Of a stretch of DNA of 20,000 nucleotides, positions 2,668 to 18,373 are shown piece by piece. Both the position numbers and the translations under genes were made by a program. How positions within the stretch are numbered: the stretch's first letter is position 1; the number at the start of each line of letters is the position of its first letter. This stretch comes from an uncultured virus (IMG/VR IMGVR_UViG_2731957961_000002) (Duplodnaviria > Heunggongvirae > Uroviricota > Caudoviricetes), in the IMG/VR virus record IMGVR_UViG_2731957961_000002, one strand, 5' to 3'. Under the pieces are notes generated by a model. It saw only the letters and a program-made list of their open reading frames with translations. It did not search any database and had not been told where the DNA came from.

Positions 2668-2675
2668 TAGCGAAA

Positions 2676-2879
2676 TCACCAGCCTTGCCTGCCGTACCAG
2701 TCGTTGATTTCCTTTTGCGCTCGGTCCTTGGCATAGCCGTAGCGCTCCTGCAGACGCCCCTCAAGCTGTTCACGCTTACCGTCGATGACATCAAGGTCGT
2801 CGTCGGTTAGCTTGCCCCACTGCTCCTTGACCTTGCCTTTCATCTGCTTCCAGTTACCTTCGACGCGGTTCCAGTCCAT
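2676..2879 (-). CDS. csbD: CsbD/YjbJ family general stress protein, 67 aa
   Basis: MDWNRVEGNWKQMKGKVKEQWGKLTDDDLDVIDGKREQLEGRLQERYG signature; GGAGG RBS. Confidence 0.95.
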   Translation of the reverse strand: MDWNRVEGNWKQMKGKVKEQWGKLTDDDLDVIDGKREQLEGRLQERYGYAKDRAQKEINDWYGRQGW

Positions 2880-2909
2880 GATGAAGCCTCCAATTTTGAT
2901 ATTGGATTT

Positions 2910-2935
2910 AACGTCTTGAACGGGGCGCGCGTTCC
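2910..2935 (-). promoter_or_regulatory. EcfG/sigmaT promoter GGAAC-N17-CGTT for csbD
   Basis: Consensus motif 30 nt upstream of the ATG; csbD genes are typical general-stress-response targets. Confidence 0.8.
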
Positions 2936-2982
2936 TCGACGACACCCAAGCCGCTAGAGGTGGTCGGTCGTAGGTCAAAGCT

Positions 2983-3174
2983 CTAACTAAGATCGGGCTT
3001 AAAGCCCGCAGGCATTGCGGGGACGTCGTCCGGATCGGTGGCATTGACCTTGTTGCAGGCGGGGCACGGCGCGCCAGCGCCGCCACAACCGCAGGCCCGT
3101 TCCCCCAAGAACGGCCGATCAAGATGGTTCTCGCAAACCCACCGCGTGTTGTCGCATCTGGGGCAGTACTTCAC
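2983..3174 (-). CDS. small Cys-rich putative Zn-binding protein, 63 aa
   Basis: CPRC...WVCENH.DRP...ACGCGGAG.PCPAC; GGAGGA RBS before GTG 3174. Confidence 0.75.
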   Translation of the reverse strand: MKYCPRCDNTRWVCENHLDRPFLGERACGCGGAGAPCPACNKVNATDPDDVPAMPAGFKPDLS

Positions 3175-3196
3175 GATATGCGTCCTCCAGGAAACC

Positions 3197-3221
3197 AATG
3201 TCGGAGGATTCATTGTGTTCC
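3197..3221 (-). promoter_or_regulatory. EcfG-type promoter GGAAC-N16-CATT
   Basis: Ends ~22 nt upstream of GTG 3174. Confidence 0.6.
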
Positions 3222-3413
3222 GGGGTCTTGCTGCCGATCTAGCGCTGCTTTGCCCAGCCACTCAGCACAACGGTCAGCTAGCTTCTCGTATTCCTCGGCG
3301 ACCCGAAGCATTCGACGCGATTCGCGGGGGTCGTAGCGCAATTGCTTCGCCTTCATGCGGGTCGCCTTTGCGCGATCTCGCCAGTACTTCGGTTGTTTGA
3401 TCGGGTCATCCAT
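3210..3413 (-). CDS. small helical-hairpin hypothetical protein, 67 aa
   Basis: YWRDRA..TR..A...D...RRML.VAEEYEKLA pattern common in rhizobial small proteins. Confidence 0.7.
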   Translation of the reverse strand: MDDPIKQPKYWRDRAKATRMKAKQLRYDPRESRRMLRVAEEYEKLADRCAEWLGKAALDRQQDPGTQ

Positions 3414-3600
3414 GCAGCAAGTACTGCAACTTGCGAACCCATCGCTCCCAAACATTTGTGAAGCGGTCGGGAAAAATATGCAAGTTGGCGTTCCGAAAAC
3501 CGGTAGGCAGCCGTATAATACCGCTGTACGGCAATATGTGTTTTAGTTGCTATAGACGGTTGTAGTCGGGAACTTGTGGCAAACAAGCCAATTACGAAGG

Positions 3601-3679
3601 NNNNNNNNNNNNNNNNNNNNNNNNNNNNNNNNNNNNNNNNNNNNNNNNNNNNNNNNNNNNNNNNNNNNNNNNNNNNNNN
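3601..3679. other. assembly gap (N run)
   Basis: 79 consecutive Ns. Confidence 1.
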
Positions 3680-3779
3680 ATTTTTCTCACCTTGAATTTG
3701 ATGCAGGTCAATGCAGAAAGCCACGCTATGATCTCAATAGATCTCCCGTCCTACAGAGAGAAAGCGGAGGTCTATACGG

Positions 3780-3974
3780 GTGGATCATTTCGCCAACGCA
3801 AACGAACTTAGAAAACGAGCGGAAGAATTTCGACGAACGGCAGAAACCATCACCGAGCACCACACCAGAGCCAGCTTCCTGGAATTGGCGCGCTCCTATG
3901 ATGCGTTAGCTTACGCGGAGGAGGCGGCGGGAAAGGCCTTAGACCTGGCACGACGCCGGAGCCAAGAGAACTAG
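3780..3974 (+). CDS. small helical-hairpin hypothetical protein, 64 aa (same pattern as 3210-3413)
   Basis: GGAGG RBS; LRKRAEEFRR.AE......R..FLELARSYDALA. Confidence 0.7.
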   Translation: MDHFANANELRKRAEEFRRTAETITEHHTRASFLELARSYDALAYAEEAAGKALDLARRRSQEN

Positions 3975-4038
3975 CTGATCCAACTTTTGGAGTAGTGCCG
4001 CATCAGGTGCATGCACTTAGCCCCAAACGAAGCGCCCC

Positions 4039-4206
4039 TCACGTCTTCGCAGCTTCCTTGCTGATAGCGGAAATCGAATTTCCGGTCTTGCGCACGATGG
4101 CGGCCAGCTCAACGTTCGATAGCTTGAGACGCCGACGCAAAACCTTGACCTGCACCTTGCTGTTCATATCCAAAGAATTACGAAAGTACGGCCTTCGCTT
4201 GATCAT
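4039..4206 (-). CDS. DUF3606-like small protein, 55 aa
   Basis: RNSLDM...QVKVLRRRLKLS..EL..IV.KTGNSISAISKE pattern. Confidence 0.6.
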   Translation of the reverse strand: MIKRRPYFRNSLDMNSKVQVKVLRRRLKLSNVELAAIVRKTGNSISAISKEAAKT

Positions 4207-4276
4207 GATGCTCTCGCAATGATGGGAGCGACGCAACCGCCCTTGGCTGCTCGCAAGATTCCGTCTCTGGCAGCCA

Positions 4277-4302
4277 AACTGACTCAACCAGCTTATTGTT
4301 CC
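4277..4302 (-). promoter_or_regulatory. EcfG-type promoter GGAAC-N17-AGTT
   Basis: Motif 70 nt upstream of the DUF3606-like ATG. Confidence 0.5.
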
Positions 4303-4401
4303 TAAGTCCGCGCGATGGCGGCGACTAACTTTTGTTGTAGCGAGAGGTGGCCACCCGGTGCTGTCGTTCGACGTGGCCCTCTCCAAGGGCTGCCTCCAAG
4401 G

Positions 4402-4451
4402 GCTCCGGCTCCACGTCCCCTCCGTCCCCCGTCTGCGGAGCCGGGGCTTTT
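4402..4451 (+). terminator. intrinsic terminator-like hairpin with a large C-rich loop
   Basis: GCTCCGGCTCC...GGAGCCGGGGC-TTTT. Confidence 0.55.
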
Positions 4452-4458
4452 GGTGCGC

Positions 4459-4722
4459 TCACCGAGAATCGACCCACATCATGAACCAATGCGTGCGCCG
4501 GTCCGGCGCCTGGTTGCACGGATTTGGCGTCGGAGATCCCATCTTGAGCTTCGATTTGTCGATTGATTCCCACCGCCCCGGAAACTGCGTTGCAGCGAAA
4601 TCCTCGATCTCGACTTTCACCATGCTGTTCGGCGCACAGATCGAACAGGTGAAGCCGCCGAGCGCGGCGAACACCACAGACTCGTCGCCTCCATGTGCTG
4701 GAGAGTCATGGCTGATCGTCAT
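4459..4722 (-). CDS. hypothetical phage-like protein, 87 aa
   Basis: ATGA coupling to the upstream gene; CSIC and PNPC motifs. Confidence 0.7.
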   Translation of the reverse strand: MTISHDSPAHGGDESVVFAALGGFTCSICAPNSMVKVEIEDFAATQFPGRWESIDKSKLKMGSPTPNPCNQAPDRRTHWFMMWVDSR

Positions 4723-5156
4723 GATGATAGCGGTGGTTCGAGTTCAACAACGTTGACAGCGTGGTGGCCTGGTTCGAATTCTTCCATCCAGATCCGATGT
4801 GGTCGCCGCAATGGCCAACCGGTGAAGCCGAAGGCTCCCAGCACCGTCGTCAGCACCTCCAGCCCCGGCACCTTGCCGCGGTTGGCCGATGAGATCGACA
4901 GGTGCCGGAACAGGCCATCGGGTTGCTGTTCAAACGAGAGCGCGACCCGATAAGTGCCAAGGGCGAGATGTTGCGACGGATATTGCCGCCGTACCGCTTC
5001 AACACCCGATGCGCGTTCGCCGAGATCCAGGCTGTTGGTATCCGATTTGTCCGCGATTGATTCCAGCGCTTTCCAGGGGATTGGGTTCTGCCGGGCCTTC
5101 TCGACCGCTTCTGCGATCTGGGCCTCCTCGTCCGGACGGATCACAAGAACACTCAT
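4719..5156 (-). CDS. hypothetical phage-like protein, ~145 aa
   Basis: GGAG RBS before ATG 5156; SFEQQP.GLFRHLSIS motif; operon position. Confidence 0.75.
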   Translation of the reverse strand: MSVLVIRPDEEAQIAEAVEKARQNPIPWKALESIADKSDTNSLDLGERASGVEAVRRQYPSQHLALGTYRVALSFEQQPDGLFRHLSISSANRGKVPGLEVLTTVLGAFGFTGWPLRRPHRIWMEEFEPGHHAVNVVELEPPLSS

Positions 5157-5174
5157 ATACAACGTCTCCAACTG

Positions 5175-5738
5175 TTACGGCGTAACGGCCATCCTGGCTG
5201 GTGCACCCATGGCTTCCATTAGGTCGGTCAGCGAATGCTGCTGCTCTTGTTTCACGTTGCAGGCGTTCGAATTCAGTTCGTGCCATTGATCGTCCGGCGC
5301 CATCTGCGGCGGAATGATCGTGATCGCTTCGAGTGCGGTGCCGTAGCGCACCAGCCCGACGATGCCCTCGTCGCTACGCCGCGACAGGTAGGCACGCAGA
5401 TGCGGGTCGCGGTGGGCATCGGGATGCTTCGGGTCGCACCAGATTTGTACGACCTGAATGTGCTGCTGGTAGCCGTCGCCGTCGTTTTGCAGCGTGATGT
5501 AATCCGGCATGAGGTCGATGACATAATGCGAGCGATCCGGCCGCGAGAGATCCGCTGCGTCGTCGTTGACGAGCCAGCGGCAATTCCAGATCGCGCATTC
5601 GGGCGGCATGCCAGCGCGGTGATACAAAGCGCAGCCCTTGCCGAACTTCTGATGTCGGCAGCGCTCGCCAGCCTTCTTCCGCAGCGGCGGCACCGGCAGC
5701 AGCTTGCAGCAAAGCTGGCAATCACCGCATTGCCTCAC
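5175..5738 (-). CDS. CxxCxxCC (YkgJ-like) Zn/Fe-S-binding protein, 187 aa
   Basis: CGDCQLCC...C.H....GC.LY...P..C..WNC; GTGA overlap with the upstream stop. Confidence 0.8.
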   Translation of the reverse strand: MRQCGDCQLCCKLLPVPPLRKKAGERCRHQKFGKGCALYHRAGMPPECAIWNCRWLVNDDAADLSRPDRSHYVIDLMPDYITLQNDGDGYQQHIQVVQIWCDPKHPDAHRDPHLRAYLSRRSDEGIVGLVRYGTALEAITIIPPQMAPDDQWHELNSNACNVKQEQQHSLTDLMEAMGAPARMAVTP

Positions 5739-6049
5739 CGGAAGTATCCCTCAATCGACTCCATGATTTTCACTCGCTCGGCTTTCGGCATTGCCAGTCG
5801 CGCCTCAACTTCCTCGATCTCGACCTTGCGTTTGCCCCAAGCGGCAAACGTCTTGGGCGTGCACGAGCCATCCTTCACGCCAATAAATGGGATATACTCC
5901 ACGGTCTCGGGATCGATGTCGCGCCAGCTAACTGACCAGTCGTGGGCGACAAGCACTTCCCGGATGCGAGCCCATTTTCCGCCGATGTAGTAGCAGCCAG
6001 TTTTGATATCGGATCGTCTCAATTGTTCGTTCCTTGTCTCATCATGCAC
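5735..6049 (-). CDS. hypothetical protein, ~104 aa (start uncertain)
   Basis: Fills the operon gap; stop coupled to the next gene. Confidence 0.65.
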   Translation of the reverse strand: MHDETRNEQLRRSDIKTGCYYIGGKWARIREVLVAHDWSVSWRDIDPETVEYIPFIGVKDGSCTPKTFAAWGKRKVEIEEVEARLAMPKAERVKIMESIEGYFR

Positions 6050-6059
6050 ACGTTGACCG

Positions 6060-6530
6060 TCAGCGTCGCACCAATGTTCGCGCCAGGGCGACAATGCCGC
6101 GAATATGTTCCGATGGAAGTCGCATCATGGCCTCCACGACATCGAGTCCATCCTTGGTTGCGAGGAAGGCAGTGATCTTCGATGGCTGTCGCGATTTGCC
6201 ACTGCCAATGTCATCAATGAAGTGGGACATATCGGTATCCAGCAGATGAGCGATCTGCTGTAACCGCGAAGCACCAACGCGATTGACACCCTTCTCGTAC
6301 TTCTGGACCTGCTGGAAGCTCACGCCGAGCTTGTCACCAAGCTCAGCTTGACTCATCTTCATTTCCATTCGACGCGCCCGAATACGCTGGCCTAGCGTGG
6401 TGTCGACTGGTGTCGTGCCGCGCTGATGTCGTAACGTCGGTTTCTTTTTTGCGGCGTTGCCCATGGTTCTCTTCCCGCTTGCTCTTGCGTGGCTTGTGGT
6501 GGCCGTTCGTTTTGCATTCTTCCCCGTCAT
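6060..6530 (-). CDS. XRE-family HTH transcriptional regulator
   Basis: LGQRIRARR...MSQAELGDKLGVSFQQVQKYEKGVNRVGASRL. Start is 6530 (ATGA-coupled) or 6464. Confidence 0.92.
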   Translation of the reverse strand: MTGKNAKRTATTSHARASGKRTMGNAAKKKPTLRHQRGTTPVDTTLGQRIRARRMEMKMSQAELGDKLGVSFQQVQKYEKGVNRVGASRLQQIAHLLDTDMSHFIDDIGSGKSRQPSKITAFLATKDGLDVVEAMMRLPSEHIRGIVALARTLVRR

Positions 6531-7246
6531 GGGGCTGCGATCCGGTGGCGATGACCGTTGGTGCCTTTTGCTTTTTTCACCACCTTTGCCTTGTGCGCCG
6601 CGCGACCGCGCGGCTTCTTTGGGCGAGGCTCGACCGCGTTTAGTTTCGCCTGCCCTTGGTAGACGGTCAGTTCGCCTAGCCGCGCAAGGTAGTCCAGCTT
6701 CAGCTTGATCTGCTTGGGCGATAGCCCGGTGTCGCGCGCCAGCGCCGACAACGAAACCCATCGATCAAGGGACAGGTACTCCTTGATCTTCACGCTGCGG
6801 GAGCTGGGCGGCTCCGGCTTTGGCGGTGGCGGGACGACCTGCGCCGCGACCGTGTCGCGCAATGAGCCGACCACCTTGGCGACCCGCGTCATCAATGCCG
6901 TGAGGTCCGCCACTTCGCCACGCAGGGCGGACACCTGATCGGGGAGCGGCACCACCTCTTGCGGCAGGTTCAGCGCCTTGGCCAATTCGGGGTGCTTCTT
7001 TGGCTTCGTCTCCTGCTTCAGCGCCACGTTGTCGGCGCGTAACAGTCTGCGCACTTCGGCCCGCAGATTCATCCGAGCGCGCCAGTCGCTGCCTGTCTTG
7101 GAGGTGATGACGCGCCTGAGTTCTTTCTCGGGGACGACGCGCCAAGCGATTTCGATGTGCCCGCCGTTGGTGTGGGTGATTTGCGGCTTTATGCCGTGCT
7201 GCTTCAGTTCAGCTGTCGCGATTTCAGTTAGCTCTGAATGATGCAT
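6527..7246 (-). CDS. hypothetical protein, 239 aa: HicA-like N-terminus, coiled coil, winged HTH, basic tail
   Basis: TNGGHI...TSKTGSDWRARMNLRAEVRR; VSLSALARDTGLSPKQIKLKLDYL; Lys/Arg-rich end. Confidence 0.7.
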   Translation of the reverse strand: MHHSELTEIATAELKQHGIKPQITHTNGGHIEIAWRVVPEKELRRVITSKTGSDWRARMNLRAEVRRLLRADNVALKQETKPKKHPELAKALNLPQEVVPLPDQVSALRGEVADLTALMTRVAKVVGSLRDTVAAQVVPPPPKPEPPSSRSVKIKEYLSLDRWVSLSALARDTGLSPKQIKLKLDYLARLGELTVYQGQAKLNAVEPRPKKPRGRAAHKAKVVKKAKGTNGHRHRIAAP

Positions 7247-7384
7247 TGTCCCGCTTTTTCCCTAATTGAACTTGCGGACCATCGGGCCATCGCCGTCGCA
7301 TGTCCTTCTTGTTTACTCCCGGTGGTTGCGTTGACCGCAGGTAGTGCAAGCTAATTAACGCGCCGACGGTTGTACAGTGGCTTG

Positions 7385-7416
7385 CAAAAATTTTTGGGAA
7401 CAAAAGTTTTTGGGAA
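7385..7416. repeat. 16-bp tandem direct repeat
   Basis: CAAAAATTTTTGGGAA followed by CAAAAGTTTTTGGGAA (15/16 identical). Confidence 0.75.
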
Positions 7417-7712
7417 TCCAATTTGGTGCGCGATGCGCTGTTATTACGCAGTCAAGTGCCCCAAGTGGCAATAGACGAATGGTGTATCGGGATTTTGTGG
7501 CATCGGCCATCTTTGTTGCCGAATGCTCGGTGGATCGACTGAGGCACTATCGTGGCAAACTGCCGAATTGCGACGGTTCAACCAAGAGAAGCGCGGCGCG
7601 ATGCAATGCGCTCAGAGAATTCCAGCGCTGCAATTTTTGTCTGATTGTTTGTGCGTCTTTTTCCCGATACAGGCGCTAGCAGAATGGAATCGATGATGCG
7701 TAAGTTCCCGAC

Positions 7713-8675
7713 GTGCCTGTTACCGTAAAACGCGCCACAGTTTCTGATTTCGAAGTGCTACGTGATGCGGTGCAGGATTCGCCCGTGAACATCATGCAGC
7801 TTGATCGTGGCAAGATGGGCGGAAGCTTGCTGCACCTGGCGTTTGACTCGGAGGTCGGGGTCTCGACTGGTGAGTTCACGCGTGGCATTCGCACCACCGG
7901 CAGCTTGAGCGATCATCGATGGGGAATCGGCACGGTGCTCACCGCGCCGGCATTGATGAATCAGGTCGAGATCTCGCCGGGCGAAATCATGATCATCCGG
8001 CCCAACACAGAACTCTATACGCGCTTTTCCGGTGCCAATGGTTATGCGACGGTCTTCATCACGCCGGAGGAGCTGCGTGCGTATCCCGGCGCAGAAGAGG
8101 CGGTGGTGTTGCGACAGTCCAGCGCCGTGCTGCCCGCCGATCCTGTGATCGCTGCCCACAGAGTCCAGACGTTCCAGTGGTTGTTGGCGCAAATCAGCGC
8201 GGAAAGCCAGACGATGTCTGCCGGCGCTGCAGACTTTTTCAGGAGCGCCCTTCTGGATCTGATGATCCGGCCGGTGTTCGAGCGTGTCGACTATCGAAAG
8301 CCGAGAATGCAGCAATCAACAGCGATGCTGGTGCGAGCAGTTGAACAATACCTCAATGATGTTAGCGACCGGCCCGTTCACAACTCCGAGCTGGCCAACA
8401 GGTTCGGCATGGATCTGCGAAGCCTGCAGCGCGCCTTCAAGGACGAGATGGGCATGGGCCTGATCGCGTATCAGCGGCAGAAGCGGTTACATGACGTGCA
8501 TACGAGGCTACGGTTTGGCGACGGTCTGGCGCTCAGCGAAATGGACACCGACCTGCTCATCAAGGACATCGCAAAGGAGCACGGCTTTATCCATTACCCC
8601 AGGTTCACGCACCAGTATCAGCAGCTGTTCAGCGAGAAGCCGTCTCACACCATGCGGCGTGGTCGACGGTCCTAA
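7713..8675 (+). CDS. AraC-family transcriptional regulator (EutR-like architecture), 320 aa
   Basis: C-terminal ELANRFGMDLRSLQRAFK...IKDIAKEHGF.HYPRF...Y..LF.EKPS.T double HTH. Confidence 0.92.
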   Translation: MPVTVKRATVSDFEVLRDAVQDSPVNIMQLDRGKMGGSLLHLAFDSEVGVSTGEFTRGIRTTGSLSDHRWGIGTVLTAPALMNQVEISPGEIMIIRPNTELYTRFSGANGYATVFITPEELRAYPGAEEAVVLRQSSAVLPADPVIAAHRVQTFQWLLAQISAESQTMSAGAADFFRSALLDLMIRPVFERVDYRKPRMQQSTAMLVRAVEQYLNDVSDRPVHNSELANRFGMDLRSLQRAFKDEMGMGLIAYQRQKRLHDVHTRLRFGDGLALSEMDTDLLIKDIAKEHGFIHYPRFTHQYQQLFSEKPSHTMRRGRRS

Positions 8676-8791
8676 TGCTTGATGGTCGGGGTCGGCAGCA
8701 GACCAACCATGCCACCTTCGAACGCACCGCCGGCCGAATGCAACATTCTGTCTACATTCCTGATAAATCTCGTTTCACGGATAGCCTTTGT

Positions 8792-9568
8792 TCAGAATGG
8801 AAGGATGTCGGGCGGGAACCCCTCATAACTCCAATCGAAGCCAAAAAAATTGCGTGGCAGTAATTCGATCAGGGCACGAGCCCCGTGTTTGGCAATCTCA
8901 AGGTTCAGAATATGGATCACGTCGACGCCGGCTCTCCGTAACAGACGGTCGCGACGAATGTCTCTCGCGTAGCCCGCGGGCTCAGCACCGTCGATTTCAA
9001 CAGCAATCAATTGCTCTCCGTTCCAAAAGCCGTAATCGACACGAAAATTATTGTCTGGTTGGTAGGACTTCGTTTCTGCCAAAGGATCTTGAACATACAG
9101 TTGCAGTTCGGGGATGGGCAGTAGCGCGCGCCAAATGTCATTCTTTTTGGGCCGCGGGTGAAGCCAATCAAAGGGGATTTCGAGGTCCCTGGTGACATGG
9201 AAGGATCCGTCCTCATCGCTGGCATACGATGATAACGCTTTCAGCGTTGCAAAATACAAATCCAAGAACTGCTCTTCCGATGTCGTCATGTTCGGGTTCA
9301 GAGATTTGAGAACACTGCACATGTGACCGAGCATTGTCTGGTCATTGTCGTCGTATTTGGCGGTGTTCGGCCATTCTCGGACATGCATATCGAAGTCTCC
9401 AAGGCAAATCGGCCGGCGTTTTGCCTTGTTAATGAAAATAACTGGTACGTCGGTCGAAAAATAAAGACCGTCCGCGGAGACTGCCGACAGTGCAATCCTT
9501 TGCAGATCGCTCTTCACCGCCCGCCCGTAAGGCAGAATCAAATAGTCTGGCACATGCAAGATCGACAT
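8792..9568 (-). CDS. protein with a C-terminal DUF559/Vsr-like PD-(D/E)XK nuclease domain, ~258 aa
   Basis: FRVDY...IAVEIDG...RDIRRDRLLRRAGVDVIHI. Start is 9568 or 9628. Confidence 0.7.
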   Translation of the reverse strand: MSILHVPDYLILPYGRAVKSDLQRIALSAVSADGLYFSTDVPVIFINKAKRRPICLGDFDMHVREWPNTAKYDDNDQTMLGHMCSVLKSLNPNMTTSEEQFLDLYFATLKALSSYASDEDGSFHVTRDLEIPFDWLHPRPKKNDIWRALLPIPELQLYVQDPLAETKSYQPDNNFRVDYGFWNGEQLIAVEIDGAEPAGYARDIRRDRLLRRAGVDVIHILNLEIAKHGARALIELLPRNFFGFDWSYEGFPPDILPF

Positions 9569-9662
9569 TGCTGCTCTTTCATACGAATCGGGAGCCTGCA
9601 CGGTGACACAGTTCAGTGTCCACCGCATCAGAGGTGCAGAACGGGCGCGTTATATGCGGTCG

Positions 9663-9968
9663 CTATTTTGGGAGTGTCATGGCAACTGCACGAACGAGTG
9701 GCACCACATTCATGGCCACGTCCTTCGGATAGCCAGCTTTCATAAGGAGGACGGGGATCATTGAGACGACGTGTAAGCCTTGCCCTTGGTATCTTGCGTT
9801 GCTCATGAAGATCGCATGGATTCTAGTCGGATCGGGCGCTGGCGACGTTGTTAAATACTCGCAGATCTCTGCCGCACACTTTCTATTATGAGGGTCGGAG
9901 TTTCGTCGGCCATTAATGATCAAGTATGCGACAACAACTACTACGACGAGACCAATTGTTATTTCCAT
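9663..9968 (-). CDS. membrane-anchored hypothetical protein, 101 aa
   Basis: N-terminal hydrophobic segment ITIGLVVVVVVAYLII; GAAGGA RBS. Confidence 0.7.
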   Translation of the reverse strand: MEITIGLVVVVVVAYLIINGRRNSDPHNRKCAAEICEYLTTSPAPDPTRIHAIFMSNARYQGQGLHVVSMIPVLLMKAGYPKDVAMNVVPLVRAVAMTLPK

Positions 9969-10166
9969 TTCCTTCCCCCAAAAAATTGCCCCTCACACCA
10001 TTAGCATCTACGGTCAGAATGGCCCACAGACACGCGCGGACCCCGTGGAAGGGGGCTGGATGGAGAGTTTTCTTCGCGCCATCAAATGGTTACATACTCC
10101 AACAAATTGCCGAGCGTCGTTCGGCGCCTTGGCCGCAGTTACTCGACGAAGTTGATCTGGCTCATG

Positions 10167-10727
10167 TCAGGCCGTCGCGGTCGCCCGGTCGGCAAGCCGG
10201 GAAATGGTGGAATGAGCTACATTGTAGGAGCGGGCGATCACGCGGGTCGCTTCGCCCGCCGCCAGTCGCGCCAATGCTTCGCGCTGCTGATGGGCCGACA
10301 GTTTCGAGCTGCGACCGAGATGCCGGCCTTCGGCCTTGGCCCGCGCCCGGCCGTCGCTGGTACGCTGCAAAATCAGCGACCGCTCAAATTCGGCGATGCC
10401 GGCGAGCACCGTCATCATCAGCCGGCCGTGCGGCGTCGTGGTATCGGCCCAGCTGTCGCCCAGCGACTTGAAGCCGGCTTCGGCCTTGCCGATCTGGTCG
10501 ACGATCCGCAGCAGGTCCAGAGTGCTTCTAGCCAGACGGTCCAGTTTGGCCACCACGACGACGTCGCCGGGCCGCAGCTTGGCCAGCAGTCGCTCCAGCT
10601 CACGGCGCTGCTTCACGCCGGAAACCTTCTCGCTGTAAAGCTTGTCGACGCCGAAGGCGTTCAGCGCCTGCTCCTGCGTGGCCAGCGTCTGGCCCGTGGT
10701 GGAAACGCGCGCATATCCATAGATCAT
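10167..10727 (-). CDS. serine recombinase (resolvase/invertase), 186 aa
   Basis: YGYARVST, EKVSG, GDVVVVAKLDRLARS, DTTTPHGRLM, AEFERSLI..RT..GR, C-terminal HTH. Confidence 0.97.
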   Translation of the reverse strand: MIYGYARVSTTGQTLATQEQALNAFGVDKLYSEKVSGVKQRRELERLLAKLRPGDVVVVAKLDRLARSTLDLLRIVDQIGKAEAGFKSLGDSWADTTTPHGRLMMTVLAGIAEFERSLILQRTSDGRARAKAEGRHLGRSSKLSAHQQREALARLAAGEATRVIARSYNVAHSTISRLADRATATA

Positions 10728-10753
10728 TGAAGTCTCTCGGGGTTGTTGGTCGG

Positions 10754-10788
10754 CAGTATGTAATACGTACTGCAGCTCAGTTCGTCAA
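10754..10788 (-). promoter_or_regulatory. resolvase promoter (TTGACG-N17-TATTAC) overlapped by a 19-bp palindrome
   Basis: Minus strand CAGTACGTA-T-TACATACTG at 10754-10772. Confidence 0.55.
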
Positions 10789-11021
10789 CCCCGGATTTGC
10801 TCGCCGTCCTGAAAAATAAACAGGATCTCCGTCGCGGTGTGCACGGTGAAGCGGCTTTCGTCATTGAACGAGCGCATTTGCGCCCATTCCTCAGCGTGGT
10901 TCTTCTTGGCGAATGCCGCCGCAATGCGGTGATCGCGGCGGACGATGAACGGCAGGTTGGCGACGACGTCATCCACCGGAACCAGCTCGGTGGATTCCTT
11001 CGTGATGATGTTGAGGGGCAC
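10785..11021 (-). CDS. hypothetical protein, 78 aa
   Basis: AGGAG RBS overlapping the upstream stop. Confidence 0.7.
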   Translation of the reverse strand: MPLNIITKESTELVPVDDVVANLPFIVRRDHRIAAAFAKKNHAEEWAQMRSFNDESRFTVHTATEILFIFQDGEQIRG

Positions 11022-11022
11022 G

Positions 11023-11307
11023 TTATCTCCTAATCAGCAGCGCGTTGATGATCCTCGCAATTACAAACATCGTGCGCGGGAAGCGCTGGCCCAGCCAGAA
11101 CAGGCCGACGAAGACCGCCACCAGGGTGCTGATGATGATGAACGGCCACTTCAGCCAGTACCAGATCAACGCCGTGACGATCAGGAACGCGCAGGTGTGC
11201 CAGCTTTTCAGGCCCGAGGGCGCGATGACCGCGGTGGCGGCCGGCGCCGCCCTCCGTGGCTTGCTGGCGCGGGGCTTATCGGCCGGCATGGGGACGAGCC
11301 GAGACAT
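11023..11307 (-). CDS. small membrane protein, 94 aa
   Basis: Two hydrophobic helices; starts 2 nt after the higA stop. Confidence 0.7.
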   Translation of the reverse strand: MSRLVPMPADKPRASKPRRAAPAATAVIAPSGLKSWHTCAFLIVTALIWYWLKWPFIIISTLVAVFVGLFWLGQRFPRTMFVIARIINALLIRR

Positions 11308-11309
11308 CG

Positions 11310-11609
11310 TTATGCCGTGGCGATCTTCGGACCGGGCTGGATCTTGGCCTGGATCTCCTTGCCGTTCTCCTCGCGGGCCAATGCCAGCTCGTAGGCATTC
11401 TTCATATTGAGCCAGTGTTCGGGCGTTGTTCGGAAATAGCGCGCCAGACGCAGTGCGGTGTCGGCGGTGATTGACCTGGAGCCATTGATGATCGAGCTGA
11501 TGCGGTTCGGTGGGACGTCCAGTGCGCGCGCCAGAGCGTTGGCGGATAGCCCCAACGGCTTCATATACTCCTTGGCCAGGATCTCGCCGGGGTGGCTATT
11601 GTTCGACAC
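11310..11609 (-). CDS. higA: HigA-family antitoxin (addiction module antidote), 99 aa
   Basis: HPGEIL..EYMKPLGLSANALARALDVPPNRISSIING.RSITADTALRLARYF.TTPE.WLN....YEL; GGAG RBS. Confidence 0.93.
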   Translation of the reverse strand: MSNNSHPGEILAKEYMKPLGLSANALARALDVPPNRISSIINGSRSITADTALRLARYFRTTPEHWLNMKNAYELALAREENGKEIQAKIQPGPKIATA

Positions 11610-11642
11610 GATTGATTCTCCGATTGAAATGCAGTGCCGCTT

Positions 11643-11672
11643 TTAATACTTCATACGTACTACGTAAGTCAA
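11643..11672 (-). promoter_or_regulatory. higA promoter (TTGACT-N18-TATTAA) with a palindromic operator in the spacer
   Basis: TACGTA-G-TACGTA at 11654-11666. Confidence 0.6.
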
Positions 11673-11808
11673 GGTAAACACATAACGAATCCGCCATGCC
11701 ACAATGTCTGGACATGAAAATCATTTCGATGATCGCCCATGAGGCCATCTTGACTAGGAGCATGCCGGCCTTGTTGCTTGGGATCTTGGATTCTTGGAGG
11801 GGCAGCAA

Positions 11809-11946
11809 ATGGAGTCGTTCAAGAAGATACTGATGGCTATCGCGCTGTCAGGGCCGAACGTGGGCTTTGGTTACTTTGTCGAGTGGTCCCACATGCCGGG
11901 CGTGCCGGTATTCGTCTCGGACTGGAAAGTTCAACGTGCGAACTGA
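11809..11946 (+). CDS. small hypothetical protein, 45 aa (MESFKKILMAIALSGPNVGFGYFVEWSHMPGVPVFVSDWKVQRAN)
   Basis: GGAGG RBS; ends convergently 5 nt from the next gene; absent from the ORF track. Confidence 0.4.
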   Translation: MESFKKILMAIALSGPNVGFGYFVEWSHMPGVPVFVSDWKVQRAN

Positions 11947-11951
11947 CGGCC

Positions 11952-12164
11952 CTAATGCTGCTTCGCACTTGGCGATGGGATCGGCCGGTCGCCGAGCTTG
12001 TAGAAGGTTTGGCTTGGCGGTTGCCACGTATCGGGATCTAGGACGTGACTCAAGGCTTGCACCGCACCGAACAGCGCGAAGCGATCTTCATCCTTGAGCC
12101 TGTCATCGGCGATCATGGCTTTGATTTCGCTGAGTTCGGTGATGATGGCGTCGCGGTCGATCAT
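11952..12164 (-). CDS. hypothetical protein, 70 aa
   Basis: Protein-like composition; co-oriented with the upstream gene. Confidence 0.6.
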   Translation of the reverse strand: MIDRDAIITELSEIKAMIADDRLKDEDRFALFGAVQALSHVLDPDTWQPPSQTFYKLGDRPIPSPSAKQH

Positions 12165-12193
12165 TGGCTTACCAATCGCAATGTGAGTACGGC

Positions 12194-12532
12194 TTAGAGC
12201 AAGCGCAACGTTAGCTGCCGATCAGATCCGGCATGGCGGTCGATGAAGTCTTCCAGCACGGCTGGGACCAGCCGATCCTCCAGGCTGAGCCGGCGCAACA
12301 CTTCTTGGGCGACCGAGTGGGAAGCGTCTTCCGAGCGACCGGTCTCGGGGTTGAACATGATGACGCGCACGGGATCTGAGTGTTGGCCGCTCAAGAGGTC
12401 GCTGACGGTCGTCTCGTAATTGGCGTGGTCGAGATCGGTTTCAACGAAGGCCTGCCCGAGAGCGCCAAAGTCATTGATGACGATATAGTAATCTTCTGGG
12501 GCACCTGGAATGATCGACGGCATCTCACGCAT
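12194..12532 (-). CDS. conserved rhizobial hypothetical protein, 112 aa
   Basis: PSIIPG...Y.V..DFGALG..F.ETD......ETT..DLLSGQ..DPVRV..FN....SED.S pattern, recalled as often lying next to ATP-dependent ligase genes; GGGAG RBS. Confidence 0.75.
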   Translation of the reverse strand: MREMPSIIPGAPEDYYIVINDFGALGQAFVETDLDHANYETTVSDLLSGQHSDPVRVIMFNPETGRSEDASHSVAQEVLRRLSLEDRLVPAVLEDFIDRHAGSDRQLTLRLL

Positions 12533-12620
12533 ACGCAACTCCCGCCACGGACCCAGAAGCCTATTCCGGATCCAAACTATTTTGGACTCGCATTTTTTGC
12601 ATGACGGCCTATCTGCAACC

Positions 12621-13083
12621 ATGCGCAGAGATAGCCTTTTTGCCCTGCCGGTCAAGGCCGCCGTGGTTCCGGCAAGCCTCGACTGCATGAAATCAAGCAC
12701 GACGGCTACCGGATGATGGTGATCCGCGAGCACAAGGCCGTGCGCCTGTTTACCAAGAGCGGTCATGACTGGTCGAAGCGCTTCCCGTGGATCGTGGAAT
12801 CCGCGCTGCGAATCCGGCAACAGCAGTTCGTCCTGGACGGGGAGGCGGTGCTGCTAGGGGGCGATGGCAGGTCGCACTTGAGCGCCTGCATTCCCGTCAG
12901 CATGACGACGAAGTCCAATTCTACGCCTTCGACATGCTGGCCGGCGCCGGGGACGATCATCGCAAGCTGCCGTTCTCGCTGCGGAAGCACAACCTGGCCG
13001 CGCTGCTGGCCCGCCGCGCCGACGGCATCCACCTGGCGTCATACGAGCAAGGCGAGATCGGCCTGGATCTGTTCCGCCACGTA
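12621..13083 (+). pseudogene. ATP-dependent DNA ligase (LigD ligase-like adenylation domain), two frameshifts and 3' truncation
   Basis: Motif I HEIKHDGYR, RLFTKSGHDW, VLDGEAV and YAFDML spread over three frames (shifts near 12684 and 12878). Ends after LFRH without the EG.V.K motif. Confidence 0.9.
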
Positions 13084-13191
13084 GCGGTTCTGGTCGACGC
13101 CGGCCATGTCGACCACGGGCGCCTGATAGGTGGATTGGGTCGAGCCGCAGCCGGCGAGCAGCAGCGCGGAAAATAGGAAGAGACGCGGCAT
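13039..13191 (-). pseudogene. truncated lipoprotein (lipobox LAGC)
   Basis: MPRLFLFSALLLAGCGSTQSTYQAPVVDMAGVDQNRY, then runs into the antisense of the ligase fragment. Confidence 0.55.
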
Positions 13192-13225
13192 TGCTATCCT
13201 ATGGTGCGATCACAGCGCTCTTTGA

Positions 13226-13711
13226 TTATTCCAATGGTTTCCTCTTTCCCTGCGAAGGTTTTTGCTTGGCCGCCGCCGCGTCCTTCTCAGCTTCGGTAAT
13301 CAGCGCCTGCAATCGCTCCGGCCCATTAGCAAGCAAGGCTTTGCAGGAATTGGCGTGCTTGTGCAGCAGGATCGAAATGTTGGAGCAAGTCTTTTCGATC
13401 TCTTCCATCATTTCCTCGCGTGCGATGGATATCCGCGCCTCGGCCGCCTTCTGCGAGACGCCCGCGACTTTGCCTGTCTGCAAACCGCGCGTGAGCAGAT
13501 TCCCGGTGTAGGTCTGGTATTGCGCGACGGCCGGGTCATTCGGCTCTTTCTGAATCAGGCAGGCTGTGACGATGGCGGTGTAGGCCGCGCAGATCATGTG
13601 CTCGTGGGCTAGATTGTTGACACCGTCCAGCAGCTTGTCGGCTTGTGCGGAGGTCGCCGCAAGCATCATAGCCGCCACGGCGGCGGCTCCGGATTTGAGA
13701 AACGTGGTCAC
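13226..13711 (-). CDS. secreted hypothetical protein, 161 aa
   Basis: AGGAG RBS before GTG; signal peptide ending AQA; four Cys. Confidence 0.8.
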   Translation of the reverse strand: MTTFLKSGAAAVAAMMLAATSAQADKLLDGVNNLAHEHMICAAYTAIVTACLIQKEPNDPAVAQYQTYTGNLLTRGLQTGKVAGVSQKAAEARISIAREEMMEEIEKTCSNISILLHKHANSCKALLANGPERLQALITEAEKDAAAAKQKPSQGKRKPLE

Positions 13712-13740
13712 TAGTTTGATCTCCTTTTTGATTGAAACTG

Positions 13741-14106
13741 CTATTTGCTTTCCCCCGGCGGATAGCCGCATGCCGCATTGAAATAGCCAATGAGTGCAGG
13801 CAATACGTTTCGTTGGGCTTGCACTTGGGGATGTGCGCGCGCGAAGGCGGCGACGTTCTCGGCAAGCTGGACATTGGTCATTCTGGCGTTGCTAATGCAT
13901 GATTGTCGATGCTGCTGTAGCCGTGTCGAGGCCTCATCGGCGTCGTGCAACCCGGTATATGCGTCATAGGCTCCGGCGATGTAGGTGGCGCGGGCATTGA
14001 CGCTCAACTGTTCAAATTGCGCATAGGTGAAGTAGGCGCCTTGCGCAGACGTCGCCGCAAGCATCATAGCCGCCATGGCGGCGACTCCGGATTTGAATGT
14101 TGACAT
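13741..14106 (-). CDS. secreted Rap1a/Tai-immunity-like protein, 121 aa
   Basis: Signal peptide; YIAGAYD...C....MT..QL...V..F...HP...C pattern; GGGAG RBS. Confidence 0.55.
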   Translation of the reverse strand: MSTFKSGVAAMAAMMLAATSAQGAYFTYAQFEQLSVNARATYIAGAYDAYTGLHDADEASTRLQQHRQSCISNARMTNVQLAENVAAFARAHPQVQAQRNVLPALIGYFNAACGYPPGESK

Positions 14107-14479
14107 TAGGTTTGATCTCCCTTTCGACGAATCCAAACGAGCGACCATTTTGCAGTTTGGGCCGCCCACGTATTTTTGTGATTTTGCTGAGTGGGCTGAG
14201 AGGTTTTAAAGAACAGCGTACCCGCAATAGATACTTCGGGTTCTTTTTATACTGGCCAAAAGGACATTGCGGGTGTGCGAGCGCGCTGGTGGCACCCGGA
14301 AAACTACGGATATATTTCCGCGCGGCTTTTGATGGCGGCGCGGCTGGCGCGAGCGCTGCATTAGTCATGGCCGCGAACGCCATCGGATATTTCATCCAAG
14401 GCGATCATCCGCAGGCGTTTACCACGAGCCCCGCCGACGACCGAACAAGCCATTTTGCTCAATGTTCCTAAACGACTTA

Positions 14480-14505
14480 GGAACCCTAAGTGCGGCACTG
14501 CAATT
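14480..14505 (+). promoter_or_regulatory. EcfG-type promoter GGAAC-N17-AATT
   Basis: 30 nt upstream of ATG 14536; the -10 element is degenerate. Confidence 0.4.
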
Positions 14506-15674: not shown

Positions 15675-15911
15675 ATGACAGACAAGCACCCCAAACGCCC
15701 TAGGGACCCGAACCAGCTCGCCAAGTCGATCATCGACATAGCGACCGGGCAGAAGCCTGACCGCGATCCCACGCCCGAGGAAGAGGGCAAGGACACGGCT
15801 GCGGTGGCGCTTGGGAAGAAGGGCGGGAAGGCGCGGGCGGATGCTATGACGCCGGAGCGGCGGGCTCAGATTGCTCGGAAGGCGGCGGAGAAGCGCTGGA
15901 AGCGTCCTTAG
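15675..15911 (+). CDS. small basic IS-associated protein (often labelled 'histone H1-like'), 78 aa
   Basis: PKRPRDPNQLAK.I.DIATG...GKD.AAVALG.KGGKARA..MTPERR..IARKAA.KRW. Confidence 0.85.
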   Translation: MTDKHPKRPRDPNQLAKSIIDIATGQKPDRDPTPEEEGKDTAAVALGKKGGKARADAMTPERRAQIARKAAEKRWKRP

Positions 15912-16344
15912 GGCGCTCTATAACGTTGAGTATGCCGCATACTTCTTTCTGATCCCCGTATCGAAGAACAGCAACCAATTTTGTAGGCCCAGGAAACTCG
16001 ACCGGCTCCGCAAGTTCTGTCCGCGCAATAATCGTTGCGAAAGGCACCCCATTCTTTTTGGCGTTCGCGATAGAGCGCTCAATAACGTCGTGCGGTATCG
16101 GTCCGGGACTCTTGTTATCAACAACGACATGGTCGTTCTGAACGTCAAGATCGACCTTAATCGGTTTTGTGAATCTTCCGTCAACAGATAGTCTGATGCG
16201 GTAATAGATTGCCAACCTGCGAAGGGCCCCAGGGAAGCTTGGGACCCGAATGGTATCGGACATTGCTCCGATGATGGTATCCTTGCCGGGACCTTCGCGG
16301 CGGATATCCTCGCAGAAAATCCCAACTGCGCTTATGCCCTTCAT
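15844..16344 (-). CDS. DUF6941-like beta-rich protein, 166 aa
   Basis: IFCEDIRRE..GK.TIIG...D.I.VPSFP motif; TGATG coupling to the upstream HTH gene. Confidence 0.7.
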   Translation of the reverse strand: MKGISAVGIFCEDIRREGPGKDTIIGAMSDTIRVPSFPGALRRLAIYYRIRLSVDGRFTKPIKVDLDVQNDHVVVDNKSPGPIPHDVIERSIANAKKNGVPFATIIARTELAEPVEFPGPTKLVAVLRYGDQKEVCGILNVIERPKDASSASPPPSEQSEPAAPAS

Positions 16345-16733
16345 CAGGCCGCTTCGTTAAATTCGAAATCGGATTCGGGAGTCTCTTCGCCTTTTTCCTC
16401 GAAAGCGTAGTCAGTTTTCACGCGCAGGGCCGGCCGGCTAGTTTCGATATTCTGTCCAGCGACCGGCACCATTTCTGGGAAGCTGATTACAGCTTTCTTG
16501 CCCAGAAGAAACGCAAGCTCAGCCACGCGCCCCAAGGTCATGTCCTTTAGGCCGGTAAGCTCTCGATTGATTACTGAGCGATGAACCCCCAACGCCCGCG
16601 CGATATCCGTCTGCTTTATGCCGCTCTTCTTTTTTTCCTCAGCATAAGCTCTCTGTAATCCACGGCGAACACTCCCAATGAAACGGCCGGCAGCGCGCTT
16701 ATGAGGTTCAATCGTAATCTGAAACGACGTCAT
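16344..16733 (-). CDS. XRE-like HTH protein (putative antitoxin) with an acidic C-terminal tail, 129 aa
   Basis: GIKQTDIARALGVHRSVINRELTG.KDMTLGRVAELAFLLG. Confidence 0.8.
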   Translation of the reverse strand: MTSFQITIEPHKRAAGRFIGSVRRGLQRAYAEEKKKSGIKQTDIARALGVHRSVINRELTGLKDMTLGRVAELAFLLGKKAVISFPEMVPVAGQNIETSRPALRVKTDYAFEEKGEETPESDFEFNEAA

Positions 16734-17199
16734 GTGGATTTTTTCCCGGTACGAACTTGGGTGGGTCTAAGTCGAGCTGGTTCCTGAAAGGAGTTACTTC
16801 CACCTTCGCATAGGGGCCGTAGAGCCCGTAATCAATAATGCGCCTCTTCGTGTCACCTATCACTCCGACGAAGCAGTCCTTTTGAGGAAACCAACCGAAG
16901 ATACGCAGGTCAGTAGTTTTCAGTTCCCAAATGCCATCCTCCACATGATTGAGAGGCTTGAAATGTTGATCATAAGTAAGCGTGTCTCCTGAGCAGAAAA
17001 GCGCGACGAATTCGTCGAATTGCTGGATGGGCAAAGACTCAACATTTCGATCCGACACGAGGCCAGGCAAATCATTTTCGATCCATGTCCTCAGCTTGGG
17101 GCCAGCGTAAATGCGGCGCATCTCCTGCTGCGGGTGGTCCAGTTGCGGGTCCAACTTGAAAAGATCACCTCTCCCGACCAAATCTATAACTGTTGCCAT
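16708..17199 (-). CDS. putative RelE/HigB-like toxin, ~163 aa
   Basis: FKPL...EDGIWELKT.DLRIFGWF motif; lies upstream of and overlaps the HTH gene. Confidence 0.6.
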   Translation of the reverse strand: MATVIDLVGRGDLFKLDPQLDHPQQEMRRIYAGPKLRTWIENDLPGLVSDRNVESLPIQQFDEFVALFCSGDTLTYDQHFKPLNHVEDGIWELKTTDLRIFGWFPQKDCFVGVIGDTKRRIIDYGLYGPYAKVEVTPFRNQLDLDPPKFVPGKNPHDVVSDYD

Positions 17200-17305
17200 A
17201 CAAGTCAACAACCCTTATACGAAATGCTTAACGTGAGTCGAAAAGTCACACTCACTCTACCTATCCGCGCGCGAAAGGGAAATGTGACAACGTAAACTGA
17301 CCTAT

Positions 17306-17339
17306 TATGCTTGACGTTAAGAATATAGGGTCATATAGT
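17306..17339 (+). promoter_or_regulatory. sigma70 promoter of the transposase (TTGACG-N17-TATAGT), probably leaderless, with a palindrome over the -35
   Basis: -10 ends 6 nt before ATG 17346; imperfect palindrome TATGCTTGAC/GTTAAGAATA at 17306-17325. Confidence 0.65.
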
Positions 17340-17345
17340 CCAGCC

Positions 17346-18373
17346 ATGAACAAGCTGGACCGAAGGACGCGCGCCCAAATCCTGCNACCTCCTTTGCGAG
17401 GGCCAATCGATCCGCGCCGTTACCCGCCTGACCGGATGNCAGCAAGAACACCGTTGCGAAGTTGCTGGTTGAGGCTGGGCACGCCTGCGCCGCCTATCAG
17501 GACAAGGCGCTTCGGAACCTGCCGTGCAAGCGCGTCCAGATGGATGAAATCTGGAGCTTCGTTTACGCCAAGGCCGCCAACGTAGAGAAGGCTAAGGCCG
17601 CTCCCGCGAGCGCTGGGGACGTTTGGACGTGGACAGCCATCTGCGCCGACACCAAGCTAATTGTTAGCTGGTTGCTCGGCTCTCGCGATCTGGATGCCGC
17701 TCTGGCGTTCACTGGCGATCTGAGAAGCCGCTTAGCAAGCCGCGCCCAGCTCACCAGCGACGGTCACGGCTCGTACCTAAGTGCCGTGGACGCTACATTC
17801 GGTGATGATGTTGATTACGCCATGCTGGTGAAGCTGTACGGCGCAGACCCTCAGGCCGAAACACGCTACAGCCCGGCAAAGTGCATCGGGGCACGCAAAG
17901 AGCCTAAAATCGGCTCTCCCGACAAGAAGCACATCAGCACTTCCTATGTTGAGCGTAGCAACCTTACCATGCGGATGCACATGCGCCGCTTTACCCGGCT
18001 CACCAATGCATTCTCAAAGAAGGTCGAGAACCACGCCGCAGCGATTGCGCTCCACACGTTCTACTACAACTTCGTCCGTATCCATCAGACGCTCAAGGTG
18101 ACGCCCGCAATGGCTGCGGGCGTCACGGATAAGCTTTGGGAGATGGATGATTTGGTTGCGATGCTGGAGCAGTGGGAGCTATCGAACTTCAAGCCGGAAT
18201 ATCAATTCGTGGTGCGTCAATACGCGATTGGTAAGGGCCATTCGGTGAGCGTTCTGTGGCGCGGCGGTGAAGTGGACAGCATCTATGGTTTTGCAAGCGA
18301 ATACGACGCCTTGCAGTGGATCAAGGACAAGTCGCAAGCTTGGCTGATAGATACCAAAACGGCCCGATCATGA
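17346..18373 (+). CDS. IS1-family DDE transposase, ~341 aa
   Basis: Removing the two Ns (17386, 17439) gives one ORF: HTH LCEGQSIRAVTRLTGCSKNTV, MDEIWSFV, LTSDG...Y, STSYVER.NLTMR...RRFTRLTNAFSKK.ENH, YNF.R.H, TPAMAAG. Confidence 0.93.

Follow-up and report, generated by a model that had tools for sequence, protein, structure and literature searches.

The window analysed here, a 20,000-nucleotide (nt) stretch of DNA from an uncultured virus of the Caudoviricetes (IMG/VR record IMGVR_UViG_2731957961_000002), carries at positions 15844–17199 a trio of minus-strand open reading frames (ORFs) that looks like a tripartite toxin–antitoxin (TA) system whose third partner is of a new class. The genes are arranged in the order toxin, antitoxin, third gene: g1 (16708–17199, minus strand; 163 amino acids (aa) from its ATG) encodes a putative toxin, g2 (16344–16733, minus strand; 129 aa) a putative antitoxin and autorepressor, and g3 (15844–16344, minus strand; 166 aa) a protein of the family DUF6941. 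This reading is carried by the predicted RelE/HigB-type fold of g1, by the helix-turn-helix (HTH) domain and variable tail of g2, by the conservation of the coupled trio in genomes, metagenomes and viral contigs, and by the recurrence of DUF6941 genes behind other TA pairs. An earlier sequence-only reading had described a three-gene operon here and proposed a system akin to the toxin–antitoxin–chaperone (TAC) systems, with a third partner other than SecB; its observation of three coupled genes is confirmed, and its interpretation is supported in part.

The coupling is tight, in that g1 and g2 overlap by 26 nt and the stop codon of g2 and the start codon of g3 have one base in common (TGATG). 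An alternative TTG start of g1 at 17211 would add 4 aa, and we placed the start at the ATG because every aligned homologue begins MAT. That the three ORFs did not arise by chance follows from the 111 relatives of g1 found at E ≤ 0.001 (about 165 aa long, every one named hypothetical) and from the joint recurrence of all three in many genomes.

A coupled cassette and the reuse of its third gene

Conservation of the trio was followed in three sets of loci. A g1-seeded scan of species-representative genomes returned 136 relatives, from which 80 loci were kept, all of them alphaproteobacterial by record title and ranging from Bradyrhizobium to Sphingomonadales, Rhodobacterales, Caulobacterales and a metagenome-assembled genome of Rickettsiales. 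A g2 relative was present in 78 of these 80 loci, directly after g1 in 76, and a g3 relative, detected with a hidden Markov model built from the first hits, in 75. Among the 78 loci with g2, g3 followed it directly in 61 and was absent in 4, and in 2 the best g2 match lay on the opposite strand; one further locus stops at a contig edge. The second set comprised 80 loci kept from metagenome contigs seeded with DUF6941. Here a g2-type gene lay upstream of DUF6941 in 71/80, and the toxin gene was of the g1 type in 32 loci and of a divergent type, termed U-type, in 29, with no toxin match in the remaining 19. All 19 had less than 950 nt of sequence upstream of g3; in the loci with at least 950 nt, a toxin gene of either type was found in 48/48. 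The U-type toxin is homologous to the g1 type over its full length (hhalign 98.9%, E 1.7e-17), and two of the sampled genomes also carry U-type trios. In viral contigs seeded with g1, finally, g2 was found in 26/26 and g3 in 23/26 loci. The start–stop overlaps are maintained across distant taxa. The trio is thus a widely conserved coupled cassette, often carried by prophages, and the neighbourhood comparison that the sequence-only reading had called for came out on the side of conservation in each set.

In one Bradyrhizobium-like clade (L030, L035, L053 and 8 similar loci; ~4900–6950) a secreted protein of 430–460 aa, full of curlin-like Q/N/G repeats, is encoded between g2 and g3 on the strand of g3, and g2 is shortened there to 117–120 aa.

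DUF6941 is not confined to the company of g1 and g2. In two species of one genus it follows a HicA–HicB pair, with HicA matching PF07927 at 30.6 bits and the DUF6941 protein its own family at 66 bits; the HicB protein between them matches PF15919 at 49.5 bits and PF05534 at 27.8 bits, the latter match ending at residue 108 of 164 and leaving 56 residues beyond the domain. Viral contigs searched with this HicAB-type DUF6941 gave no confirmed relative. When viral contigs were seeded with another DUF6941 subgroup (80 loci), 50 of the loci contained a trio of a different composition, T2–AT2–DUF6941, and 24 a g1-type trio. T2 is a protein of about 140 aa. Of 29 members, 8 show a sub-threshold match to ParE_toxin (best E 0.002) and 3 one to Gp49, and its profile, compared with PDB sequences, gave E 0.074 for RelE and E 0.36–0.49 for HigB-2; by hhalign it has no detectable homology to g1 (6%). 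AT2, at about 160–190 aa, carries a C-terminal HTH_3 domain at 51–55 bits. DUF6941 is therefore a modular third gene, reused behind at least three TA pairs (g1/U-type, HicAB and T2/AT2).

The T2–AT2–DUF6941 arrangement is also found in Pseudomonas phage MD8 (KX198612.1; L283, 1323–3432), where it stands directly after cI and on the same strand, a position that in lambdoid phages is the slot for exclusion genes expressed in the lysogen. The depositors named its products “HigB-like toxin” (gp52), “HigA-like antitoxin” (gp51) and “putative Ig-domain containing protein” (gp50), and the antitoxin gene overlaps the DUF6941 gene by 4 nt. In the section of the MD8 paper that deals with these genes (Evseev et al. 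2021, PMC8508860, section 2.10), gp52/gp51 are treated as a two-gene HigBA-like pair with no link to gp50. With its RelE-superfamily-like toxin, HTH antitoxin and DUF6941 protein, the MD8 trio is a prophage counterpart of the architecture in the window; it differs in its toxin, which like T2 in general is not detectably homologous to g1, and in its antitoxin, whose HTH is C-terminal.

Fold and sequence of the three proteins

The g1 protein had no match in Pfam or NCBIfam (E ≤ 0.1 in either), nor in PADLOC or PHROGs, and its profile gave only chance-level matches to PDB sequences. Its AlphaFold2 (AF2) model, built from 37 sequences, has a mean predicted local distance difference test (pLDDT) score of 91.9 and a predicted template modelling (pTM) score of 0.88. 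The Foldseek comparison suggested in the sequence-only reading returned nothing from the PDB at E ≤ 0.001 for g1, the sub-threshold rows being headed by TA toxins (best row 6af3_A, E 6.1e-3, probability 0.99), and it was the wide search with VIA-align that gave the fold. In this exhaustive search rank 1 was 6af3_A, a TA toxin chain from S. pneumoniae (Z 8.6, root-mean-square deviation (rmsd) 3.6, 106 aligned residues), rank 2 M. tuberculosis HigB1 on the ribosome (7nbu_Y; Z 7.9, rmsd 3.1, 106 aligned) and rank 3 V. cholerae HigB2 (5mje_A; Z 7.4), and 23 of the top 25 rows were TA toxins (RelE, HigB, YafQ, YoeB, ParE, BrnT). The tool warns that a Z below 8 may reflect a common arrangement; we nonetheless accept a RelE-type fold because one family fills the list and the matches cover residues ~25–145. 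Judged by its model, then, g1 has the alpha/beta fold of the RelE/ParE (BECR) superfamily, as had been proposed from the letters of the gene, and lies outside any curated sequence family.

The core of g1 is flanked by an N-terminal extension (~1–25) and a C-terminal one (~145–163). Alignment of the homologues shows W91, L93, K94, T95, D97, R99, F101, G102, W103 and F104 to be invariant, and the block that holds them, W91-E-L-K94-T-x-D-L-R99-x-F-G-W-F, maps to the central strands of the model. Candidate catalytic residues would be the invariant K94 and R99 together with the nearly invariant R28, D108, Y127, R139 and K148. The basic residue at position 94 (K/R) and R99 are invariant across both divergent subfamilies, g1-type and U-type.

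By sequence comparison g2 is an Xre-type HTH protein, with a match to HTH_3 at 20.7 bits, under the Pfam cut-off of 23, and one to the PHROGs family phrog_1373, “transcriptional regulator”, at E 1.2e-9. The HTH core, which corresponds to the HTH_3/HTH_31 stretch of Pfam and is the most conserved block of the alignment, spans residues 34–78 (16500–16634, minus strand). In the family as a whole conservation is good over the first 30 residues and in the HTH, and the sequence becomes variable past a conserved G-x-N motif. What follows in g2 is a tail of 44 residues (86–129; 16347–16478, minus strand) that is rich in aromatic and acidic residues and ends in DFEFNEAA, just as the sequence-only reading had described it, and that is probably disordered.

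The tails were compared across 159 g2-type proteins encoded beside g3, which reduce to 135 non-redundant tails. A terminal Ala was found in 57/135 and a terminal Ala-Ala in 34/135, the frequency of Ala within the tails being 0.118; as controls, the C-termini of g1 proteins end in Ala in 5/89 and in Ala-Ala in 0/89, and those of g3 proteins in 25/200 and 4/200, respectively. The earlier suggestion that the Ala-Ala end of g2 is a degron thus finds backing at the level of the family, and the end looks degron-like. Within their final 16 residues 91/135 tails contain an alternating hydrophobic pair, compared with 65.8 ± 5.5 (maximum 83) in 1000 shuffles, and a three-position alternating pattern is weaker (25 observed, 14.1 ± 3.4 in shuffles, maximum 29); these statistics overstate significance because related sequences are not independent. 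Where g3 is adjacent, the tail past G-x-N has a median length of 41 (24–54, n = 61), whereas it measures 23 in the clade whose g3 is displaced and, at loci lacking g3, 10, 12, 15 and 75; the displaced and g3-less loci stand for very few independent events. The 75-aa tail belongs to L033 (5002–5412), the sole g3-less locus with a long tail, and there a 136-aa ORF with no Pfam match sits at the position of g3, possibly as a different third partner. By analogy, the features of g2-type tails resemble the chaperone-addiction (ChAD) elements of the TAC literature: in the passages of 10.1101/2024.02.24.581848 on these elements, ChAD varies more than the antitoxin's other parts, is conserved only within subgroups, forms beta-strands on the chaperone and is ClpXP-dependent.

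The assignment of g3 to DUF6941 (PF22091), likewise anticipated, holds at 29.3 bits against a gathering cut-off of 27 (residues 9–131), and the Atlas clusters nearest to it are DUF6941. The AF2 model (pLDDT 93.7) is almost all beta with one helix, and the protein consists of an immunoglobulin (Ig)-like beta-sandwich (1–145) followed by a Pro/Ser/Gln-rich tail. Foldseek returned nothing from the PDB at E ≤ 0.001, and VIA-align gave Ig-like matches of a generic kind, with RbmA best at Z 7.2, none at Z ≥ 8 and 135 chains at Z ≥ 5. SecB was absent among the listed fold matches and the only Pfam match was that to DUF6941; g3 is thus not SecB-like, in agreement with the sequence-only reading. We considered the Ig-like AGS-C domain of a Pycsar cyclase (Z 6.9) as a lead to the function of g3, and we do not use it as evidence since it was tied with many unrelated Ig-like domains. 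Four uncharacterised phage proteins in BFVD share the fold at E ≤ 0.001.

The signature of the g3 family is FC[DE]D[IV]RxExxGK. In g3 its residues C11, D13, R15 and E17 occupy alternate positions on the first strands and form a conserved, exposed polar stripe. DUF6941 sequences are otherwise highly divergent, with a mean column identity of 21–26%. Searching with a profile of g3 relatives brought up 6909 representatives at E ≤ 1e-3, of which 3865 reached E ≤ 1e-10, and almost all of the 6909 are stand-alone proteins of about 134–220 aa; no fused form was seen among 8000 scored longer candidates, which is weak evidence. Per genome the family is rare (3 of 400 other sampled genomes of the phylum and 5 of 301 of another alphaproteobacterial order). 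In PADLOC the HTH alone is covered, and g1, g3, T2 and the remaining DUF6941 proteins are without a model.

Proposed mechanism and competing explanations

In the mechanism that we favour, g1 would be a toxin with the RelE/HigB fold, most likely an mRNA endonuclease that depends on translation, and g2, as its Xre-HTH antitoxin and probable autorepressor, would neutralise it and repress the operon. The product of g3 would be an accessory third component, made in translational coupling with g2, that most likely binds or shields the antitoxin, whether by holding its tail or by masking its degron, and in this way determines for how long the toxin is kept neutralised; a protease would be involved as well. 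The g3 protein would then play the part of a SecB-like chaperone through an unrelated fold, and it may double as a phage sensor, like the SecB-like chaperones of TAC systems. Because DUF6941 serves several TA families and is located in the immunity regions of prophages, the role of the cassette is probably phage defence by abortive infection or the addiction of cells to a prophage or island. We regard the chances of this reading as a whole, a TAC-like module in which a non-SecB third partner acts via the antitoxin, as evenly balanced; that the trio is a module and of TA nature merits more confidence than that when taken alone.

The likeness to TAC systems (M. tuberculosis HigB1–HigA1–SecB(TA), Rv1955–57; E. 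coli HigBAC and CmdTAC) begins with the order of toxin, antitoxin and third gene and with the HigB-type RelE fold common to both toxins, M. tuberculosis HigB1 being the second-best structural match of g1. As described in the passages of 10.1101/2024.02.24.581848 on TAC antitoxins and chaperones, TAC systems further share with the trio an HTH antitoxin with a variable C-terminal extension, a third gene that serves unrelated TA families, and a link to phages. They differ from it in their third protein, which is SecB-like whereas that of the trio is a DUF6941 Ig-like beta-sandwich; moreover AT2, a DUF6941-linked antitoxin, is unlike TAC antitoxins in having no long tail, and g1 is unlike TAC HigB in lying outside the curated HigB/Gp49 families. 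Since the defining SecB-like chaperone is absent, the trio is not a member of TAC.

Three-component TA systems with a separate regulator and a small separate antitoxin are also known, namely omega–epsilon–zeta and PaaR2–PaaA2–ParE2. The trio is like them in having three small co-directional genes that include an HTH protein or regulator and a toxin; in those systems, however, the third protein is the regulator, whereas in the trio it is the HTH protein that seems to be the antitoxin, and the additional gene encodes a beta-sandwich of 140–170 aa that is also found beside a complete HicAB pair. With type II TA systems in general the trio shares small, adjacent, co-directional and coupled genes for a toxin-fold protein and a DNA-binding partner. 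A search of a literature library found no paper mentioning DUF6941 or PF22091, and such a third gene is not described in the passages retrieved from a RelE/ParE survey (PMC11980606) and from the NetFlax study (PMC10440598). The association of a TA pair with DUF6941 in a tripartite system, which the sequence-only reading had supposed to be undescribed, thus appears to be so.

Several observations weigh against the reading as a whole. The g1 protein matches none of the curated RelE/ParE sequence families (Pfam RelE, HigB, Gp49, ParE and others), and for catalysis it has candidate residues only. The fold matches of g3 are generic and give no functional lead. In 11 loci of the Bradyrhizobium-like clade g3 is inverted and lies 1.5–2 kb away on the downstream side of g2, and intact g1–g2 pairs occur without it (L005, L007, L033, L077, L184, L194, L196), from which it follows that g3 is dispensable in some lineages. 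DUF6941 genes also occur apart from TA pairs: in phage MR13 one lies downstream of cI with no annotated TA pair, in L084 (676–1783) one follows two small predicted membrane proteins with no recognisable TA pair, and L090 and L111 likewise have DUF6941 with no such pair. AT2 antitoxins extend only ~15–20 Lys-rich residues past the HTH, with a terminal Ala in 1 of 33 non-redundant ends, so that a long, ChAD-like tail ending in Ala-Ala is not universal in front of DUF6941, and in g2 itself the relatedness of the tails inflates their statistics. A strict chaperone-addiction scheme is weakened in particular by the short ends of AT2 and by the g1–g2 pairs that do without g3. Accordingly, the single step in which g3 holds the tail of the antitoxin is put forward tentatively, with somewhat more against it than for it. 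It is conceivable, and to our mind rather unlikely, that DUF6941 as a whole is a large, unrecognised class of peptide-binding TA guardians, in which beta-strand capture would hold the tail of the antitoxin and mask its Ala-Ala degron from ClpXP-type proteases, and phage proteins in competition for that groove would free the toxin.

Of the explanations that compete with an antitoxin-stabilising g3, the one that survives best, unlikely as we hold it to be, makes g3 a sensor or trigger instead of a stabiliser, through which a phage protein or some other signal would cause the toxin to be released or activated. The presence of the trio in prophages, directly after cI in MD8, would suit such a function, and a mean column identity of 21–26% fits a protein engaged in an arms race. 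The resemblance to AGS-C, however, does not speak for sensing when 135 chains, many of them unrelated Ig-like domains, stand at Z ≥ 5, and PADLOC has no model for any part of the trio save the HTH. Moreover, the observations made here fit sensing and stabilising alike, two roles that coincide in TAC systems, as presented in the parts of 10.1101/2024.02.24.581848 that concern phage sensing.

A second alternative, which we consider improbable, has g3 bind the toxin directly, as the antitoxin or as an additional one, and leaves g2 mainly as a transcriptional regulator, in the manner of omega–epsilon–zeta and PaaR2–PaaA2–ParE2. This would account for AT2 antitoxins that offer no long tail for g3 to hold, it would find a suitable protein interface in the polar stripe C11-D13-R15-E17, and it would draw on the fact that g1 and T2 both look RelE/ParE-like. 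Yet DUF6941 also follows HicA–HicB, a pair whose toxin is of another fold and in which HicB is an antitoxin complete in itself; the toxin gene and g3 are always separated by a complete gene of antitoxin type; and the at least seven loci that keep g1–g2 in the absence of g3 imply that g2 suffices to neutralise the toxin.

It is very unlikely, in our view, that the cassette does not arrest growth at all, g1 being a catalytically inert RelE-fold protein and the trio serving mobile elements as a regulatory or structural unit. The conserved motif WE[LI][KR]...R[IV]FG lies on the central strands, the location of the active-site basic residues in the RelE family, and its K/R94 and R99 are invariant in both subfamilies; HigBA loci typically show such a gene order, such overlaps and an HTH partner; and DUF6941 also serves bona fide HicAB. 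Against this stand the lack of a sequence match between g1 and the curated RelE/ParE families, the sizeable extensions at both of its ends, and catalytic residues that are only candidates. Finally, an ordinary two-gene TA pair with g3 as a mere hitch-hiker, to which the loci with absent or displaced g3 and the other contexts of DUF6941 (L084, phage MR13) would lend themselves, is already hard to hold given co-occurrence of 75/80, 48/48 and 23/26 in three independently seeded sets, start–stop overlaps kept across distant taxa and DUF6941 genes after three different TA families.

Genomic surroundings and wider meaning

The surroundings of the trio look like a mosaic accessory region. The G+C contents of g1, g2 and g3 are 0.50, 0.53 and 0.54, most of the window being higher (0.55–0.63), and the source genome (8.8 Mb in 135 contigs) holds g1 once and DUF6941 once. 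Adjoining g1 on the plus strand is an IS1-family transposase (PF03400; 17307–18373), apparently split over two frames (17307–17585 and 17462–18373), with two N bases inside the region at 17386 and 17439. On the other side the window encodes a YspA-type SLOG protein (85–765), a GH25 lysozyme (1205–1876), a serine recombinase (10167–10727), a Rap1a-like immunity protein recognised by a sub-threshold match (13741–14169) and, within 1–14500, a CsbD-like protein, a DUF3606 protein and an AraC regulator. Another possible TA-like pair lies at 6060–7145 on the minus strand, where a 126-aa ORF precedes the gene of a 233-aa protein that matches HTH_3 at its C-terminal end (49.5 bits), a layout reminiscent of T2/AT2. 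Inspection of the DNA 5′ of g1 for a promoter or operator gave a weak palindrome (70%; 17252–17287) and a promoter-like match overlapping the g1 start, from which we draw no claim.

At the other end of the trio, a small basic gene on the plus strand (15675–15911; 78 aa from its ATG) is convergent to g3 and overlaps its 3′ end with its last 68 nt. Relatives of this gene occupy the same convergent and usually overlapping position in 29/63 metagenome loci with at least 230 nt downstream, and are found at the g3 3′ end in 6/74 genome loci and 1/111 viral loci; they accompany g1-type and U-type trios alike. The consensus of the protein is ...KRPRDPxQLAKxIIDIATGQ...GRKGGKARAxxMTxExRxEIAKKAAxKRW. NCBIfam gave no match for the 78-aa form and Pfam none for the 112-aa ORF containing it, and its neighbours in the Atlas are clusters without a name, one of which counts 641 members mostly from phages, and a cluster auto-named “Histone H1 family”. 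The gene could be a fourth component that the cassette may also lack, or it could regulate g3 in antisense. The overlap also bears on a Pro/Ser/Gln-rich motif in the tail of g3 (PPxEQSP-like; 15847–15909, minus strand) that is seen in many DUF6941 proteins. We set it aside as a linear motif of g3: it arises when the conserved C-terminus of the 78-aa gene is read in antisense, and its conservation may therefore stem from that gene and not from g3. In the L084 locus, the membrane protein nearer to DUF6941 ends in a strand-like ...TQVQFLVV.

TAC systems serve as a model for how bacteria sense phage proteins, and to our knowledge the dedicated chaperone of three-part TA systems is SecB-like in every known case. 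If the reading favoured here is true, the cassette would represent a second, structurally unrelated solution to the problem that TAC systems solve, and a function would be gained for DUF6941, a large orphan family of 6909 representative clusters; the g1 family, for its part, would extend the RelE/ParE superfamily by a branch that is as yet unclassified. The cI-adjacent site in the temperate phage MD8 makes the trio a testable candidate for a defence or addiction module expressed in lysogens. Should DUF6941 proteins as a class indeed act as guardians of antitoxins, thousands of DUF6941 genes would mark a new TAC-like, prophage-borne family of abortive-infection systems built on an Ig-like fold and not on SecB.

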